Positions 2,212 through 24,020 of a DNA stretch of 27,026 nucleotides are shown here, one piece after another; the first letter of the stretch is position 1, and every line of letters begins with the position of its first letter. The translations under genes and the position numbers were made by a program. The notes below the pieces were generated by a model. The model worked only from the letters and a program-made list of their open reading frames with translations, ran no database searches and had not been told where the DNA came from. Origin of the DNA: a virus (Duplodnaviria > Heunggongvirae > Uroviricota > Caudoviricetes); the IMG/VR virus record IMGVR_UViG_2690316099_000006; one strand, 5' to 3'.

Positions 2212-3748
2212 TTAAATACTCCCCGCGTTATACCACGTCCCATTAATGCAATACTGAATTGGCCTTGCCTGAGTTGTATCAATTAGTTCATCTCTGTTTG
2301 AGTTAACGGAACCGGTAACAACATAACCTGACCTGTCAGACCATCCGGGACCATTCCATGTCTGAACAGATAACAGACCACCAAGGCGAATACCTGTAAT
2401 AAACCTTGAGTTACATTCTGCCTGCGTATATGCACCAACATCTCCCGCAGAGGGTTTGCGGGTTGTGGTGTAAAACTCTGACCAGTCAGCTTCAAAGCCA
2501 TAACCATCACGCGCTGAACGATAAAAAATACCNNNNNNNNNNNNNNNNNNNNNNNNNNNNNNNNNNNNCCGTTCCTGTAATTCACGCGGAACTGTACAGC
2601 AGGGCAGCTCCCCGTATTCATATTGAAGTGGAGGATTAATGTCGATGCGCCACCAATGTTTGCGTTATAGACCCCGCTATTCCAGTTCCAGCCAACAGCT
2701 TTATCATTTCCGACAGTGCTTCCTGTTTGCCCNNNNNNNNNNNNNNNNNNNNNNNNNNNNNNNNNNNNNNNNNNNNNNNNNNNNNNNNNNNNNNNNNNNN
2801 NNNNNNNNNNNNNNNNNNNNNNNNNNNNNNNNNNNNNNNNNNNNNNNNNNNNNNNNNNNNNNNNNNNNNNNNNNNNNNNNNNNNNNNNNNNNNNNNNNNN
2901 NNNNNNNNNNNNNNNNNNNNNNNNNNNNNNNNNNNNNNNNNNNNNNNNNNNNNNNNNNNNNNNNNNNNNNNNNNNNNNNNNNNNNNNNNNNNNNNNNNNN
3001 NNNNNNNNNNNNNNNNNNNNNNNNNNNNNNNNNNNNNNNNNNNNNNNNNNNNNNNNNNNNNNNNNNNNNNNNNNNNNNNNNNNNNNNNNNNNNNNNNNNN
3101 NNNNNNNNNNNNNNNNNNNNNNNNNNNNNNNNNNNNNNNNNNNNNNNNNNNNNNNNNNNNNNNNNNNNNNNNNNNNNNNNNNNNNNNNNNNNNNNNNNNN
3201 NNNNNNNNNNNNNNNNNNNNNNNNNNNNNNNNNNNNNNNNNNNNNNNNNNNNNNNNNNNNNNNNNNNNNNNNNNNNNNNNNNNNNNNNNNNNNNNNNNNN
3301 NNNNNNNNNNNNNNNNNNNNNNNNNNNNNNNNNNNNNNNNNNNNNNNNNNNNNNNNNNNNNNNNNNNNNNNNNNNNNNNNNNNNNNNNNNNNNNNNNNNN
3401 NNNNNNNNNNNNNNNNNNNNNNNNNNNNNNNNNNNNNNNNNNNNNNNNNNNNNNNNNNNNNNNNNNNNNNNNNNNNNNNNNNNNNNNNNNNNNNNNNNNN
3501 NNNNNNNNNNNNNNNNNNNNNNNNNNNNNNNNNNNNNNNNNNNNNNNNNNNNNNNNNNNNNNNNNNNNNNNNNNNNNNNNNNNNNNNNNNNNNNNNNNNN
3601 NNNNNNNNNNNNNNNNNNNNNNNNNNNNNNNNNNNNATTTTGGCCCCGTGGCTGACAGATATAGCACCTGTTCTCAGATTTATAGCGAATGGCCTTAATG
3701 GGCCGATATTACCGTTTTCGCCTTGTCCTTCAGCCGTCGGAATGAAAT
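2212..3748 (-). CDS. Tail fibre C-terminal variable cassette 2 (inverted, promoterless); upstream limit hidden in mask 3749-4074
   Basis: Hand translation of the minus strand 2532 to 2212 gives ...GYVVTGSVNSNRDELIDTTQARPIQYCINGTWYNAGSI with a stop at 2212-2214. Further upstream, 3637-3748 encodes [36 protein letters not shown], parallel to [27 protein letters not shown] in cassette 1. The reading frame changes across masked blocks. Confidence 0.7.
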
Positions 3749-4076
3749 NNNNNNNNNNNNNNNNNNNNNNNNNNNNNNNNNNNNNNNNNNNNNNNNNNNN
3801 NNNNNNNNNNNNNNNNNNNNNNNNNNNNNNNNNNNNNNNNNNNNNNNNNNNNNNNNNNNNNNNNNNNNNNNNNNNNNNNNNNNNNNNNNNNNNNNNNNNN
3901 NNNNNNNNNNNNNNNNNNNNNNNNNNNNNNNNNNNNNNNNNNNNNNNNNNNNNNNNNNNNNNNNNNNNNNNNNNNNNNNNNNNNNNNNNNNNNNNNNNNN
4001 NNNNNNNNNNNNNNNNNNNNNNNNNNNNNNNNNNNNNNNNNNNNNNNNNNNNNNNNNNNNNNNNNNNNNNNNNNAT

Positions 4077-17685: not shown

Positions 17686-17712
17686 TTGTGCAAATTTGTG
17701 CACTATTGTGCA
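17686..17712. repeat. Three helically phased TTGTGCA direct repeats (10-bp period), near the palindromes GTGCATGCAC and AAAAAACGCGTTTTTT
   Basis: aTTGTGCAaatTTGTGCActaTTGTGCAttt at about 17686, 17696 and 17706, in the noncoding stretch between Q and the accessory operon. Confidence 0.5.
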
Positions 17713-17752: not shown

Positions 17753-17938
17753 CTACCACTCGATCGGCACGTAGTCATTAAGTTCCGGAGACCAATTGCA
17801 CTTTTCACATCTGTGTTTTCCATTCTGGCAGATACATAAACGATAACGGCCACAATGCGGGCACCCATTTTCACCATTATCATAATCACCGAGCGACCAT
17901 TCCTGCATAAGCAGCTCTTCTTCATCATCATTTAGCAT
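17753..17938 (-). CDS. Small Cys-rich zinc-ribbon protein (hypothetical), last gene of accessory operon
   Basis: 61 aa with CPHC...C.C...C..C spacing and an acidic N-terminus (NDDEEELL). Confidence 0.45.
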   Translation of the reverse strand: MLNDDEEELLMQEWSLGDYDNGENGCPHCGRYRLCICQNGKHRCEKCNWSPELNDYVPIEW

Positions 17939-17952
17939 TAATCCCCCTTGAG

Positions 17953-18192
17953 CTATTTACTCTTCTCGGCCCTCAAAATCATACGAGAACCATCATCCAG
18001 CTCCCAATTAATTTCACCGCCTTCTGCCATGACTAGATGCCAAACGAGTTGAGCGGCCTCGTTGGTTACATCGCGACCGCGATCATTTCCTACGCGGCGT
18101 TTTGTTCCGTCTCCTAAGTCACGCATTTTTGCCAATACGATGGTTTTTGATAGCGGTGAAAAACCAAGCTGTAGTCGTGCTGAATTACTCAC
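17953..18192 (-). CDS. Hypothetical protein (79 aa), accessory operon
   Basis: ORF whose start overlaps the upstream gene stop (18189/18192), suggesting translational coupling. No family recognised. Confidence 0.45.
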   Translation of the reverse strand: MSNSARLQLGFSPLSKTIVLAKMRDLGDGTKRRVGNDRGRDVTNEAAQLVWHLVMAEGGEINWELDDGSRMILRAEKSK

Positions 18193-18590
18193 TGGCTGCC
18201 CCCTTTGTACTGTGTTAACTCTTCCTGCTCCTGCATCATGCGATTGACCTGAACGCGTGTGCGTCGAACGGCAAAATTAAATTGAAACATGAGCCGGAAC
18301 ATTTCTGATGCTTCCGTGTGAGCATCACGGATAGGTGACAGGCGGTACAGTTCTGCCTCCGTAGCTTGTTGAATCAATGACAGATCAAATTGAAGTGCGG
18401 GTCTGGTACATTTTGCACATCTGGCAGCAAGCTCCGGTATTAGTCTCTTAACGAAGGTGTTTTGCACCGCTTTGTTGATTTGTGTCTGCATCCAAATCGC
18501 AAATTTCAGCGAACGCATAAGTTTGATAGCCTCGGGCAGCGGCAGATAGATCATGCTGGTAGATTTGGGTGGTTGGTGAACCATCTTCAC
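18189..18590 (-). CDS. Hypothetical protein (133 aa), accessory operon
   Basis: ORF immediately after masked block 18622-19260, same strand as the ParM-like gene. No family recognised. Confidence 0.45.
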   Translation of the reverse strand: MKMVHQPPKSTSMIYLPLPEAIKLMRSLKFAIWMQTQINKAVQNTFVKRLIPELAARCAKCTRPALQFDLSLIQQATEAELYRLSPIRDAHTEASEMFRLMFQFNFAVRRTRVQVNRMMQEQEELTQYKGGSQ

Positions 18591-19260
18591 GGATACGCGA
18601 TTTCGCAGCGTTCGGAAAATCNNNNNNNNNNNNNNNNNNNNNNNNNNNNNNNNNNNNNNNNNNNNNNNNNNNNNNNNNNNNNNNNNNNNNNNNNNNNNNN
18701 NNNNNNNNNNNNNNNNNNNNNNNNNNNNNNNNNNNNNNNNNNNNNNNNNNNNNNNNNNNNNNNNNNNNNNNNNNNNNNNNNNNNNNNNNNNNNNNNNNNN
18801 NNNNNNNNNNNNNNNNNNNNNNNNNNNNNNNNNNNNNNNNNNNNNNNNNNNNNNNNNNNNNNNNNNNNNNNNNNNNNNNNNNNNNNNNNNNNNNNNNNNN
18901 NNNNNNNNNNNNNNNNNNNNNNNNNNNNNNNNNNNNNNNNNNNNNNNNNNNNNNNNNNNNNNNNNNNNNNNNNNNNNNNNNNNNNNNNNNNNNNNNNNNN
19001 NNNNNNNNNNNNNNNNNNNNNNNNNNNNNNNNNNNNNNNNNNNNNNNNNNNNNNNNNNNNNNNNNNNNNNNNNNNNNNNNNNNNNNNNNNNNNNNNNNNN
19101 NNNNNNNNNNNNNNNNNNNNNNNNNNNNNNNNNNNNNNNNNNNNNNNNNNNNNNNNNNNNNNNNNNNNNNNNNNNNNNNNNNNNNNNNNNNNNNNNNNNN
19201 NNNNNNNNNNNNNNNNNNNNNNNNNNNNNNNNNNNNNNNNNNNNNNNNNNNNNNNNNNNN

Positions 19261-20176
19261 GTGGCACCCCGTCCGCGATGAAAGTCGCATTAACTCCGCA
19301 GGCTTCGCGGATAGCGGGTGCCACAATCTCCGCCCCTCCACCGACAACCATCACCCGCCCGTAACCCGAAAAACCCGCCAGCGCGCGGATCACGCGTTGT
19401 TTCAGTGTTTCTTCCTTTTCACGAATAACCGCCATCAGGCTGGCGTAATGCGCGTCATTGTGGATGTGCTGGCGCAGCCAGGCTTCATCATGGCGATGTT
19501 CGATAATGGTATTGGCGATGTGGTGACTGGTGCGCATACCGTTAGTGGCCATCACCGACAGTACGGCATCGGCCATCAGAGAAACGCCTACGTGTGGATC
19601 GCAAAACACCTGGCTGATACCTGCCAGTTGCCCCTGAACCTTTGCCACATCCAGCGTGGTTCCGCCCAAATCCACAATCAGCAGGGATTCAAACGGACTC
19701 ATGTCAGCCAGTGCCTTAAAGCCAGCCGGAATGGATTCAGGCATAACCCGCACGTTACGGATAGTGAATGCTTCGCCGTTCTGGTACTCCACCGGGCGCA
19801 TAACGTTCGCTTTTTTGCGGTTGATGTTGGCCATGTCCGGCTGTGCGTTTGTGTCGAAATACTCGCTCAGTGGCAGGGTGACAACCACATCCACCTCCTG
19901 TGGCGTGATGCCTGATTTGACCAGCGCGTGATGAATGGCAATGACATTTACATCGCTGTACTGGTATTGCGTGTCGGTTGTCTGGACAAAGCGATCGCTG
20001 ACCGGATCAAAACCATAGCGCACGCCATCAAGCATGTAGTTCGCGGGCTGCATGCCACCGAACGGCGCAGACCATTCCGACTTGAAGCTGTTCGGGCTGA
20101 TGGCGTTGCGGCGTTCGCCGTTCTCAGTCCATGCCAGCTTGATGTTGGTGGAGCCGTCGTCGATACAAATTTTCAT
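19261..20176 (-). CDS. Actin-fold ATPase, ParM/StbA family (visible N-terminal ~305 aa; C-terminus in mask)
   Basis: MKICIDDGSTNIKLAW...ISPNSFK...YSDVNVIAIHHAL...NINRKKAN...FTIRNVRVMPESIPAGF...SLLIVDLGGTTLDV...GVSLMADAV...FSGYGRVMVVGGGAEIV carries the actin-fold phosphate-1, phosphate-2 and adenosine motifs in ParM order and spacing. AAGGA lies 8 nt upstream of the ATG at 20176. Confidence 0.8.
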
Positions 20177-20205
20177 GTCGCTTTTCCTTATGTTGATTAA
20201 TTAAT

Positions 20206-20319
20206 CGTTTACGGGATTCTGAAATCCCGTTTTTGCCTGTTTTGTGCGCGCTTCATATATCGCTGCGCGTTTTTTGCTCATTTACGGGATTCGTGAGTCC
20301 CGTTTCTGTCTGTTTTTTG
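20206..20319 (+). repeat. Two ~40-bp direct repeats, each with a hairpin, upstream of the ParM-like gene
   Basis: CGTTTACGGGATTCTGAAATCCCGTTTTTGCCTGTTTTGTG (~20206-20246) and CATTTACGGGATTCGTGAGTCCCGTTTCTGTCTGTTTTTTG (~20279-20319). Each has ACGGGA(T)...(A)TCCCGT followed by a T-run on the plus strand. Confidence 0.55.
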
Positions 20320-23097
20320 TTTCCACTGGTCAGGCCACCCCGCAGCAGGTCTGCTTTGCGGCGGGCGCGTTCAGTGGTTTCACTGATTCTCTGTGCGTGC
20401 TCTGCGTCGCGGATGGCGCGCAGCATGTCAGAAAGCACGGTAACGGGTGTTTTCATGGTGTTCTGGTCCTGCTGAAGTGTGGATGCCAGGCGTGCGGCGG
20501 CTTCAGGGTCTGATGCCCCCAGCTGTGTCAGATAGCTGGCGACCGGGTTATGGCGGATCTCCGTGCTGCTTACGCCATGATTACGGCTCAGGCGCTGCCA
20601 GAGCTGCGTGATTCGGCTGTCCGGGCGGGTATCCGGTTTGCGTACAATTTCAAATCCCTGCGGTGCAATGATGCTGCCGTCAACGTACAGACTGCCGCCC
20701 CGTAACAGGTGCTGCATCTGTTGTTCACCGATATGCAGGCCGAGAGATTCAGCAGACTCCCGCCATTCTTTAGCGAGTAATTCGTGGTTATCAGGCAAAG
20801 GCCGCTGCTGTTTGCGGCTCTGTGTCCAGCTCTGCATTTCATCACTGCTGTTTTTTGCCTGTTTGTCACGAAGCGAACGCATCAGCGCCCGGCGTTCGTG
20901 CCGTTTCAGTGAGCGCATCCATTCATCCACATCAACGCCGTCAGGGAGCTGCGGCCACGGTGCTGGCCGTTCTTCCGGCTGTTCTGTCCCGTTGTTGTCC
21001 GTTTCCTGTACACGGGGACAGTTATTGCCACGAGTCCAAGGGGCGGCAGGGCCGCCCTGAAGGTCAAAACCATTTTCGCGGGCGCTGTCTTCCGCTTCCG
21101 GTTTGCGTCTTACCAGCTTCCAGTTATCCGGATGCGTGCACACACGGGAGGATTCCCCGATGAGTGGTGACCAGATCCCGTAAATCTGTACGCTCTGTTC
21201 GCCGTAATCGTTCAGCTCATCGGCGAGGTCGTAGGCGGTGCGAATCAGGTAGTCTTTGCGTGGAACAAGTACGCCGCCCTGTTTCTCTATGTAGGTGGCA
21301 AAACATCCGGCATCAGCGGCGGCAAGAACCGCATCCATTGCGTCATCCTTCAGCCGTTGCGGGCCTTCCGGGTTGCGTGCCATCTGGCTGGCAAGGCGGC
21401 GCAGTTCACGCCATACCTGGCGGGAGGGGATGCCAAAGAACTGGAACTGGCGGACCCGGNNNNNNNNNNNNNNNNNNNNNNNNNNNNNNNNCCCAGCCGA
21501 TGGCGCGTTCCACGCTCTCGGCCATTGATTTTCCGGTTTCGTGGTCAACGCGTGGCTTGCCCGTTTTCGGGTCGATGCCATCCACGGCGCGGCTGTCCAG
21601 GTTTTTCCCGATGTAGGTGGCGATGTAGCTGGTTGGCGTGCCTTTTGAGCCGTCTACATACTCCGCCTTAAAGCGCGGAGTTATGTCATCGCCCAGCTCG
21701 TGACGATCTTCCTGAATGGCAATATCGCGGGTGTGGGACACAATGGTGTCGATTTCTTCCGGATGAGCAAAGACCATCATATGCCAGTGCACGGTGCCGT
21801 CATGGTGAGGCTCCGCCGTGCGGATGCCATACCAGCGCAGGCCGTCGCGGTTCAGTTTTTTGCGGACCGTCGCAAAAAACGTGTTAACCAGGTAATCGCT
21901 GGAGTCGCGCATTGTGGCCCCGTTCCATTTGGGATTCGGATGACCGTTCTCCGTTGTGGCGTGGTATTTTGACGGGCAGGTGACAGTCAGAAACACCGCT
22001 TTGTCGCCACGGGCTTCGGCCAGAAGTTCCAGCCCCTTCATGGTGGCCATCATTTCTGCCTTACGGTGAACCGGGTTACTTACTCCCGCGTAATACACCG
22101 TCTCGAGATCAATCGTGAACCCGTCTTCATTTTCCAGCATGAAACTTTTCAGGAAATCGCGTGTTTTCTCGCGCTGTGCGCGAAACTCGCTTAACGCGTC
22201 CTGGCTCAGATAGGGCGATGTTTTTCTGGAAACCAGACAGGCGGCGCGAAGTTGTTCTTCTCTCCACTCGCAACGTAACAGCCACAGTTTGCGTTTCCAC
22301 CATTCCGCACAGGTCAGGCGAAGGATTGCGCCCGGCAGCAGTTCTGTGTCCGGTTCGTGCCTCCGGTCTTTGTCTGTTGTCAGTGCGTCATAATGCGGAG
22401 GCATGGCGTGTAAGTGTAACGCCATGCGGGCCAGCATCTGATACGCCTTCAGCGTTACATCCATGGTCAGCTCGCCATCAGTCGCGCCAAAACCATCGCA
22501 GAGTTTTTCGAAGGTGCTGCTGAACATCGCCGCCGTCATGGTGGCCAGCGTCTGTATCTGGTGTTTGTTGAGTTGCGGCAGGTAAAGCAAATCGTCCAGG
22601 CGTTCACGTCCGGCAAGGGAGCGATAACCCGGTGTCAGCCAGTGTCCGTCAGTGCGATCCAGACGTTCGAATATTTTGCGCAGGGTTCCGCGTGCATAGC
22701 GTTCCGCCTGCCAGCTCTTTTTGCCTTTCCGGCGATCGGCTTCCTGTTTTTTGCGCAGGAAGGAGAGGTGGCGAATAAGCGGATCGCGCAGATAGGACGG
22801 CAGCAGGCGCAGCGAGGCCATGGCTTCATCCACCGCGCCGCGTGCCTGTTTTCTGGCGTCTCCTGCCAGTGTGATGGTTTTGTCCTGTTTTTCCTGTGCG
22901 TCCAGGCTTTTATTAATCAGGTTGCCCAGTGGCGTGGCGGAGAACGCCGCATCAGCCATTTCCTGGCGGCGCTCGTTCTCTGCCCGGTGGGCATCCAGCC
23001 AGGAGGAAAGCGCGGATTCAGGAGCGGGGATCCCCGTTCCTTCACGCCCCACTGCGTGGCGCGGTTGTTGCCAGTCCCTGATGTACTCTGCCGTCAT
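20253..23097 (-). CDS. A: Replication initiator (rolling-circle endonuclease) A; frame appears to change across masked block 21460-21491
   Basis: N-terminal 535 aa (21492-23097) has ...MKGLELLAEARGDKAVFLTVTCPSKYH...GTVHWHMMVF...TPTSYIATYIGKNL... typical of P2 gpA. Downstream of the 32-nt mask an open ~400-aa frame continues to 20253 in a different frame. Confidence 0.75.
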
Positions 23098-23103
23098 AGT
23101 GAT

Positions 23104-23469
23104 TTACTTCGTCATGCCATTCAGGGTGTCGCGGCAGACTGTAGCCAGCCGCTGAATTTCCAGCACGGTGTCTTCTGTGTCGGCATGGCGATGTGTGATG
23201 CGGATGCTGTCGGCAATCACATCGACGATTGCAGAGGATGGGCGCTGGTAAATGCCAATAACGGACGGGGTGCCACCTTCAATGCGGTAAAGCCTGTAAT
23301 TTCCCTCGTGGCTGTCAATCATGTAGCGACCATCAATAACAATCTTTCCGTCAGCGAGCTGCGGTACAGGCAGGGATTTCAGGTACATGTCATAACGATC
23401 ACGCACGCGAGCGGCAAGATCACGCTCTGTGTTGAGCAGGTATTCAAGAAAGTCGTTGGCGAGAATCAT
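23104..23469 (-). CDS. Hypothetical early-operon protein (121 aa), immediately upstream of A
   Basis: ORF whose stop abuts the A start, same strand; position of P2 orf83-type genes. Confidence 0.5.
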   Translation of the reverse strand: MILANDFLEYLLNTERDLAARVRDRYDMYLKSLPVPQLADGKIVIDGRYMIDSHEGNYRLYRIEGGTPSVIGIYQRPSSAIVDVIADSIRITHRHADTEDTVLEIQRLATVCRDTLNGMTK

Positions 23470-24020
23470 TGCGGCAATCCTCTTGTTACAGATGTGCGAA
23501 GGCCTCCCNNNNNNNNNNNNNNNNNNNNNNNNNNNNNNNNNNNNNNNNNNNNNNNNNNNNNNNNNNNNNNNNNNNNNNNNNNNNNNNNNNNNNNNNNNNN
23601 NNNNNNNNNNNNNNNNNNNNNNNNNNNNNNNNNNNNNNNNNNNNNNNNNNNNNNNNNNNNNNNNNNNNNNNNNNNNNNNNNNNNNNNNNNNNNNNNNNNN
23701 NNNNNNNNNNNNNNNNNNNNNNNNNNNNNNNNNNNNNNNNNNNNNNNNNNNNNNNNNNNNNNNNNNNNNNNNNNNNNNNNNNNNNNNNNNNNNNNNNNNN
23801 NNNNNNNNNNNNNNGTTAGTGGGTTGCTACACCCAAACGGCATCAGGTTTACCTGATAAGAAAAGCGACCGCCTGTTTTGCGCTCTTTTCTTGTGACTAA
23901 ACCGCTGCGCCAGAGACGGCGTAGCTCCGCATTAATGGTTGTGGTTGGTGTATTCAGTGCTGCGGCGATTTCTCCACTGCTACAACCCGGATTGGCAGCG
24001 ATGTAGTCCAGAATGGTCAT
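23466..24020 (-). CDS. Hypothetical protein with N-terminal winged-helix-like segment; interior 23519-23814 masked
   Basis: MTILDYIAANPGCSSGEIAAALNTPTTTINAELRRLWRSGLVTRKER... looks like a wHTH. Length and frame through the mask are unverified. Confidence 0.4.
   Translation of the reverse strand: MTILDYIAANPGCSSGEIAAALNTPTTTINAELRRLWRSGLVTRKERKTGGRFSYQVNLMPFGCSNPLXXXXXXXXXXXXXXXXXXXXXXXXXXXXXXXXXXXXXXXXXXXXXXXXXXXXXXXXXXXXXXXXXXXXXXXXXXXXXXXXXXXXXXXXXXXXXXXXXXXXXXXGGLRTSVTRGLPQ

Follow-up and report, generated by a model that had tools for sequence, protein, structure and literature searches.

Two imperfect copies of a 42-nucleotide (nt) unit lie together at positions 20205-20319 (about 115 base pairs, bp) of a 27,026-nt stretch of viral DNA (IMG/VR record IMGVR_UViG_2690316099_000006, hereafter the window), directly upstream of a gene for a ParM-like ATPase. 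We predict that they form the parC centromere of a prophage-borne partition system of the R1 plasmid type (ParMRC), where they would be bound by the adaptor protein ParR. Comparison of the sequences puts the probability of this assignment at roughly 70%. The same region is probably an operator as well; the stoichiometry of binding, the mode of transcription and the biological role are less certain than the assignment as parC. Fourteen phage records, among them Escherichia phage P88 and other members of Xuanwuvirus (P2-like Peduoviridae), match the region around the repeats with 95.9-99.4% identity, and the window is, on this likeness, a P88-like prophage. All the relevant genes are on the minus strand, in the order gpA (replication endonuclease), parM and parR.

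The repeat pair and its ParMR genes

A repeat search revealed one strong repeat family, with copies at 20205-20246 and 20278-20319 that share 34 of their 42 nucleotides (81%), with 73 bp from one start to the next. When positions 19800-20800 were shuffled 200 times with dinucleotides preserved, the best direct match between 42-mers had a mean of 24.5 (standard deviation 1.0, maximum 28) against the 34 observed here, and 73 was the only strong self-similarity offset (z = 5.2). The preliminary description of this DNA had reported two tandem repeats of about 85% identity. The repeat pair was confirmed, but its identity is slightly lower and the units are not strictly tandem, because a 31-bp spacer separates them. 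Each unit holds a dyad, ACGGGATT-N4-AATCCCGT. In the proximal unit (minus strand, coding-strand sequence CACAAAACAGGCAAAAACGGGATTTCAGAATCCCGTAAACGA), which is intergenic and spans positions -70 to -29 from the parM ATG, this 20-nt dyad is located at 20211-20230 and reads ACGGGATTCTGAAATCCCGT on the plus strand. The distal unit (minus strand, coding-strand sequence CAAAAAACAGACAGAAACGGGACTCACGAATCCCGTAAATGA) spans -143 to -102 and covers about 14 of the last 22 codons of gpA; its dyad, ACGGGAyT-N4-AATCCCGT, is located at 20284-20303 (plus strand ACGGGATTCGTGAGTCCCGT) and consists of two GGGATT-type half-sites with their centres 10-11 bp apart. The spacer (20247-20277, minus strand), within which gpA ends (stop codon 20253-20255), varies more than any other part and has GCCATAAAACATGAAGTGCGC as an alternative allele among relatives. 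Between the proximal unit and parM there is a conserved leader, TTAATTAATCAACATAAGGAAAAGCGAC (20177-20204, minus strand), with the Shine-Dalgarno sequence AAGGA at 20185-20189. The periodicity of AA dinucleotides peaks at 10.5 bp, a level reached in 11 of 2000 shuffles.

The parM gene (19217-20176, minus strand, ATG at 20176) encodes a protein of 319 amino acids in P88. The window open reading frame (ORF) matched the Pfam families StbA_N (8.7e-82) and ParM_N (9.1e-62), and the P88 orthologue matched R1 ParM (PDB 1MWK) with E = 9e-93. Positions 18622-19260 of the window are masked with N, which covers the 3' end of parM (from 19260 downward) and all of parR; hence, parR was read from relatives. 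It is placed at 18901-19212 (minus strand) from P88 and 80 near-identical loci. A protein of 103-104 amino acids follows parM directly in P88 and more than 70 such loci. The P88 protein (103 amino acids) belongs to Pfam PF10784 (E = 1.6e-24), and a profile of 28 ParR alleles matched the ribbon-helix-helix adaptor ParR of pB171 (PDB 2JD3; E = 0.0047, over residues 8-73). These Pfam and structural matches indicate that parM and parR are a genuine R1-type ParMR pair inside an integrating phage. The locus thus combines a ParM ATPase beside the site, a ParR gene directly after parM and a repeated cis site upstream of parM.

ParR alleles (loci L003-L085) diverge down to 52-57% identity (types A and B) while their ParM proteins remain at least 98% identical. 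The N-terminal strand RRISFYLKP, which corresponds to the DNA-reading strand of ribbon-helix-helix proteins, and the C-terminal motif NIxxxFPE are invariant across these alleles. An invariant strand together with an invariant dyad core would fit an unchanged reading head on an unchanged core site. The ParR linker (residues ~65-95) is hypervariable, and mosaic alleles occur, such as P0029; diversifying selection and recombination are both possibilities for the origin of this divergence.

The occurrence of the repeats is highly restricted. The dyad pattern is present at these two places only in the window (0.09 expected), and likewise only at these two in the whole P88 genome. The 126-nt element was present in 1303 of 5426 complete E. 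coli genomes (24%), with a median of one place per genome, and in all 40 rows sampled across the E. coli ranking it was located under the replication-endonuclease gene of a P88-like prophage; carriers of this prophage family include O157:H7 and ST131 strains. Only six records matched in the plasmid collection, four of them listed under the replication-endonuclease gene. Of the two plasmid records examined, one is a larger plasmid with a P88-like prophage in it, and the other consists of an entire P88-like genome deposited as a plasmid. A dispersed intergenic family resembling repetitive extragenic palindromes or bacterial interspersed mosaic elements (REP/BIME) was ruled out by the single-place occurrence and the two dyads per phage genome, and the possibility raised at the outset, that the repeats would recur elsewhere as a generic intergenic family unrelated to the operon, was not borne out: they are confined to the parMR operon. 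A search around parMR revealed no other repeat array that could compete as parC.

Conservation of the repeats with parMR

The scans of genomes and viral contigs gave only relatives whose ParM is at least 98% identical, and more divergent relatives were obtained from protein-database searches followed by look-up of their contigs. Among the 80 or more loci of the first group, between 50 and 62 distinct upstream sequences were found. One of them (L039) has a shorter gpA (871 amino acids) and an extra ORF of 155 amino acids before parM, and the left edge of the distal unit is the exact point from which this locus is homologous to P88. The product of the extra ORF (3457-3924), which lies between gpA and parM, is cysteine-rich and zinc-ribbon-like; its final ~20 codons run across the distal repeat and encode the same peptide tail, KQTKTGFTNPVNEQKTRSDI, as P88 gpA.

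Both units, their 73-bp spacing and the core CGGGATT-N4-AATCCC are also present in a Hafnia prophage with a ParR of 74% identity. Compared with the window, this prophage is 64-66% identical over the 3' region of gpA, 81% over the distal unit, 74% over the spacer, 86% over the proximal unit and 86-90% over parM. The Hafnia gpA stop codon is located in the loop of the distal dyad and the DNA beyond it is still conserved, which indicates that the constraint acts on the nucleic acid and not on the tail peptide of gpA. These comparisons show the repeats linked to parMR rather than to gpA, and they answer the question of whether the repeats are conserved with the operon in other genomes: they remain linked to parMR even where the gene upstream is a different one. 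On the other side of the operon, the sequence after parR is hypervariable, with 24 unrelated clusters in 76 loci (L002-L092; window equivalent ~17900-18620). Hence, the conserved module is formed by the two units, the spacer between them, parM and parR. The position directly after parR is a cargo hot spot, and many of the cargo segments begin with a hairpin, CAGGGCG-N4-CGCCCTG, right after the parR stop codon.

The overlap of the distal unit with gpA (20253-23075, minus strand; 940 amino acids in P88; positions 21460-21491 masked) raises the question of whether the repeats are part of the replication origin of this endonuclease, either as the nick site or as accessory hairpins. The enzyme is of the HUH type; HUH enzymes often recognise hairpins, and the origin of P2 is located inside the 3' part of its gene A. 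However, the P2 nick region GCCGCGCCTCGGAGTCCTGTCAATAACTGT (nick at NC_001895:29892) aligns with positions ~21010-21050 of the window (GCCGCCCCTTGGACTCGTGGCAATAACTGT, minus strand), with a nucleotide match far above that predicted by the 30% identity of the gpA proteins. This alignment places the origin about 750 bp upstream of the gpA stop codon, and ~21010-21050 is therefore the probable replication origin of P88-type phages. The repeats, in contrast, are situated in and beyond a clade-specific C-terminal extension without counterpart in other gpA proteins, whose end falls inside the distal repeat, and they stay with parM when the end of gpA is replaced. A P2-type origin at the repeats was rejected on the position of the homologous stretch, and any role of the repeats in the origin is very improbable.

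ParMR is a recurrent module of P2-like prophages across Enterobacterales (L096-L099, from Plesiomonas, Hafnia, Serratia and Enterobacter), where it always follows gpA and precedes the late structural genes; the ParM proteins of these prophages share 54-63% identity with the E. coli type. The Plesiomonas prophage (L096; ParM 63%, ParR 35%, ParR strand VTRRISFYLNP) has two GGG-N10-CCC dyads 72 bp apart, and a second type of Hafnia prophage (L097; ParM 62%, ParR 37%, strand STRRVSFYLKP) has two such dyads 73 bp apart. The dyads of these two loci (GGGACAACAAAAACCC / GGGACAACACTAACCC and GGGATTGAGGAAACCC / GGGTTCATTAAATCCC, respectively) are retained while the remainder of the units has diverged. 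The Serratia and Enterobacter prophages (L098 and L099; ParM 54-58%, strand NRKISFYLKP) show another layout, a 19-20-nt inverted repeat consisting of AGGAACGAAATAGAAAAAT, 28 nt and the inverted copy. In the 864 kb of fetched loci the paired-dyad pattern was present upstream of parM only.

Two loci connect the prophage site with plasmids: L100, plasmid-like, from Pantoea (ParM 53%, strand RRKILFY) and L101, a Salmonella plasmid (ParM 51%, strand RRKITFY). Their presumed parC sites resemble the prophage site in consisting of two clusters, each of about three helical turns, whose starts are 72 bp (L100; -145/-73 from the parM ATG) or 73 bp (L101; -138/-65) apart. They differ from it in that each cluster contains three direct ~11-bp repeats of the TTCTCT type, in the RRKI(L/T)FY strand of their ParR and, in L101, in the sigma-70 promoter between the clusters (11/12 matches to the consensus), which matches the R1 arrangement (PMC2241845, PMC5016525). 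The distances in the window, -143/-70, are nearly equal to those of the plasmid clusters, and no other argument for the repeats being parC is as strong as this agreement in their position relative to the parM ATG.

Another possibility is that the dyads are operators of a different dimeric phage regulator, such as the winged-helix MarR-like protein encoded at 23466-24020, C or Cox, which would control the expression of parMR or gpA while ParR acts elsewhere or non-specifically. The dyads, 20 bp long with two 8-bp arms around an N4 centre, have the classical geometry of a helix-turn-helix dimer site, the MarR-family gene is located in the same early region, and since L039 and the Hafnia prophage are still P88-like phages, the linkage to parMR is compatible with a shared phage factor. 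However, in the phage genome the dyads are found here only, whereas the sites of phage repressors and Cox cluster at early promoters. The match of the parM-start distances with the plasmid repeat clusters and the joint change of site layout and ParR strand class seen in the Serratia and Enterobacter prophages also speak against such a regulator, which we consider unlikely.

DNA site, RNA hairpin or terminator

The variation within the dyads was analysed in 26 distinct variants (11 distal and 15 proximal). The GG/CC cores are unchanged in all of them, with G4 G5 / C16 C17 invariant in the distal dyad, and the central four nucleotides vary freely (CACG, CACA and CATG, as well as TCAG, TAAA and TGAA in the proximal dyad). 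No compensatory pair changes were found among the 26 variants, and one-sided arm changes occur in both senses. The 16 A-rich nucleotides that precede each dyad are conserved as well, and the repeat region gave no match to any Rfam family. Taken together, the dyads are conserved in the pattern of a protein site rather than in that of an RNA structure.

This bears on the proposal that the dyads function at the RNA level, as hairpins at the junction of gpA and parM in the early-operon messenger, either as a processing or stability element or as a modulator of parM translation. When folded as RNA, three of the four possible hairpins (both on the plus strand and the proximal one on the minus strand) have an 8-bp stem with -10.2 to -10.7 kcal/mol. 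On the coding strand the proximal dyad reaches -10.7 kcal/mol and is located 34 nt before the parM ATG, the distal dyad forms only 6 pairs (-8.7 kcal/mol), and the 164-nt region folds better than its shuffles (z = -3.4). On the minus strand, G-U pairs are still formed in some proximal variants (A1->G, C18->T). Against these points, the distal one-sided changes produce mismatches on the minus strand, the A-rich conserved stretch extends 16 nt upstream of the hairpin, and the conserved spacing of 72-73 bp would be left unexplained. Furthermore, the Plesiomonas prophage retains dyad and spacing with a 4-bp stem and a 10-nt loop, so that the hairpin is nearly lost; this indicates that the hairpin is not the conserved feature. 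An RNA element at this junction is consequently rated as improbable.

The preliminary description had also suggested that each repeat carries a hairpin and a T-run, and that the repeats might be plus-strand terminators insulating the operon from read-through from the A gene. The hairpin dyads are indeed present, but the adjoining T-runs are confined to the plus strand, the antisense strand of both gpA and parM; on the minus strand the hairpins are followed by AAACGA or AAATGA. The A gene is encoded on the minus strand, and since the hairpins have no U-run there, they cannot insulate parM from gpA read-through. A related explanation is that the repeats are intrinsic plus-strand terminators against antisense transcription (for example, from the late terminase/portal operon) into gpA and the origin. 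A consensus scan called both of them as terminator-like on the plus strand, with 8-bp stems containing four GC pairs followed by TTTTTG and TTCTGTCTGT, and no strong plus-strand terminator was found directly after the portal gene. Nevertheless, the repeats are ~3 kb beyond the end of that gene (17261), and a bidirectional-looking terminator is already present at 17688-17703. In addition, many alleles have an interrupted proximal T-run (coding strand GGCGAAAGCGGG, plus strand CUUUCGCC), and the distal T-run is poor. The Plesiomonas relative and the second Hafnia type lack a stable hairpin with a T-run, yet dyads and spacing persist. A terminator function is thus quite improbable. The element at 17688-17703 (minus strand) is a terminator-like palindrome, GTGCACAAATTTGCAC, with a T-run, situated between the convergent early (minus strand) and terminase/portal (plus strand) operons; the same motif, GTGCACAAATTTGCAC, recurs at positions 10903-10930 of P88.

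A predicted centromere in an integrating phage

Several observations weigh against the assignment of the two units as parC. The arrays of R1-type systems consist of tandem direct iterons of ~10-11 bp, each taken up by one ParR dimer, and neither such iterons nor a 10-11-bp sequence periodicity of this kind was detected in the repeat region, the units holding inverted half-sites instead. A matrix built from ten R1-type iterons ranked the dyad arms at 183 of 43,806 positions. There are only four clear half-sites and at most ~6 positions for ParR dimers, compared with ten iterons in R1, and a 20-bp dyad with an N4 centre would suit a helix-turn-helix dimer too. On the protein side, the parR gene of the window itself is masked and its presence is deduced from near-identical loci, and the AlphaFold2 monomer model of ParR, although its helix pattern is compatible, has low confidence (predicted local distance difference test, pLDDT, of 57.6). 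The two partners also give little sign of evolving together: there is no association between the ParR allele type (A or B) and the repeat variants; strand and dyad core are both invariant in the P88 clade and thus show no true covariation; parallel changes at the same position of both units numbered 3 against 2.15 expected (1874 of 5000 permutations gave at least as many); and the contrast between strand classes includes only two lineages per class. The suggestion that the repeats could be parC is accordingly upheld by their position, their exclusivity, their linkage to parMR and the plasmid-matching distances, but not in the form of an R1-like array of 11-bp direct iterons. Two further lines of argument were dropped: a likeness of the dyad arms to R1 iterons seen by eye (AAATCCCGTAA versus AAACCCAATAA), discarded on the matrix rank, and a concerted evolution of the two units, suggested by same-position changes in L039 and Hafnia and not significant by permutation.

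In characterised systems, ParR dimers bind the parC repeats and the C-terminal tails of ParR capture the ends of ParM filaments; the ParR helices of pSK41 and pB171 contain ~12 dimers per turn (PMC5016525). In the prophage, two dimers of the ribbon-helix-helix protein ParR would bind the inverted GGGATT/AATCCC half-sites of each dyad in neighbouring major grooves, and a third dimer might occupy the conserved A-rich turn before each dyad, so that each unit would span about three helical turns. With 73 bp (seven turns) between their starts, the two units would be exposed on the same face of the DNA, with phased, bendable A-tracts, and would co-operate in one partition complex. This complex would present the C-terminal tails of ParR (NIxxxFPE) to the ends of ParM filaments, which could then move or position the excised or replicating phage genome.

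Regarding transcription, the preliminary description had located the repeats in the promoter and 5' region of parM, overlapping the 3' end of the A gene. The distal copy does overlap the end of gpA and the proximal copy is upstream of the parM ATG, but no convincing promoter was found there. A consensus scan gave no sigma-70 promoter with at least 9/12 matches in the spacer or around the units; the best candidate, TTCAGA-16-ATTAAT (20223-20196), is weak (8/12) and has its -35 box inside the proximal dyad. Because the spacer lacks a consensus promoter and the distal unit is inside gpA, parMR is probably transcribed together with gpA, by read-through in the early lytic operon. A weak promoter of its own, overlapping the proximal dyad, is also possible. 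Read-through from the early lytic operon would imply that the system acts after induction or infection and not in the quiescent integrated state. The complete proposal, namely that ParMRC acts on excised phage genomes replicating by rolling circle through a compact, promoter-less, dyad-type centromere embedded in the early replication operon, is tentative and more doubtful than the assignment of the site.

The closest reference is parC of plasmid R1, which comprises two groups of five direct 11-bp iterons flanking a 39-bp spacer with the par promoter, 159 bp in total (PMC2241845); its layout was also seen in one of our loci (L086). Both sites are located directly upstream of parM, consist of two repeat blocks flanking a spacer and accompany homologous ParM and ParR proteins. 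R1 parC is curved (PMC2241845) and the prophage site is A-rich and helically phased. They differ in that each prophage block is a single dyad of two inverted half-sites plus an A-rich turn, within 115 bp in total, and in that the prophage spacer holds the gpA stop codon without a consensus promoter, the distal block being inside coding sequence.

A palindromic ParR site has a precedent, by analogy, in cParC of Clostridium botulinum, where palindromic repeats serve a chromosomal ParMR system and binding by cParR was detected by electrophoretic mobility shift assay; that site has three palindromes, its proteins are unrelated in sequence and its host is a Firmicute (PMC12270681). The same source places cParC upstream of cParMR in the text and after cParR in the legend of its Figure 5 (PMC12270681). 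Precedents also exist, again as analogies, for partition serving the DNA of excised or replicating elements. The srpMRC system of the SXT/R391 integrative and conjugative elements (ICEs) is, like the prophage locus, a type II partition system on a normally integrated element; it is expressed only with the excision and replication programme and stabilises the excised form, with srpC formed by repeats in the 5' region of srpM (PMC4489591). It differs in that the element is an ICE and not a phage, SrpR has no recognisable homology to ParR, and srpC consists of four repeats with a SetCD-dependent promoter (PMC4489591). In the AlpAC/alpS system of the Corynebacterium prophage CGP3, an actin-like filament and a DNA adaptor, both encoded by the prophage, bind specific sites on the phage DNA and take part in its transport and replication once the prophage is induced (PMC5539076). 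Both proteins have only a distant relationship to ParM and ParR, and host and phage type are different. No description of a P88-type parMR or of its cis site was found in the literature searched.

Other features of these phages also touch on plasmid-like maintenance. The P88 genome (35.8 kb) encodes an integrase, the C repressor and Cox in addition to the genes described above. A hok/gef family gene is present in P88-like phages, at 34928-35068 of the P88 genome (L094) and at 1291-1431 of L095. The second stability locus of R1, hok/sok, belongs to the same gene family, and P88-like phages may therefore have counterparts of both classical R1 stability loci. L095 itself (NZ_CP148288.1, 1-34461), deposited as a circular 'plasmid' of 34,461 bp from E. 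coli Z1323PEC0009, is a complete P88-like genome with an integrase, C/Cox-type regulators and parMR; it may represent phage DNA that has been excised or is replicating, or else a carrier state maintained as an episome. A further P88-like prophage (L084, NZ_JBQPOM010000071.1; ParM 98% identical) lies on a contig of 226 kb that is assigned to Vagococcus sp. WN89Y, from a Gram-positive genus, most likely through contamination of the assembly or mislabelling.

ParMRC is the textbook actin-like system of DNA segregation and has been studied almost only on plasmids. The molecular logic of the prophage locus is the expected one; what deserves attention is a predicted dyad-type, apparently promoter-less and partly coding centromere in a prophage of 24% of the complete E. 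coli genomes. The unusual traits of this putative variant are a centromere made of two dyad units, the apparent loss of the internal autoregulated promoter and the partial overlap with coding sequence. For annotators, the repeats provide a defined cis element, GGGATT-N4-AATCCC, twice, 73 bp apart, that can be recognised in thousands of genomes. If ParR binds the units, they would offer a minimal parC with which to ask how few ParR dimers cap a ParM filament. The finding also raises the question of why an integrating phage needs a partition machine. Should the proposed action on excised genomes be true, the phage would be employing a plasmid centromere for its own purposes, the site would represent a minimal parC occurring in nature, with four to six positions for ParR, and ParMRC might position or separate phage genomes for replication and packaging, or sustain a plasmid-like carrier state.

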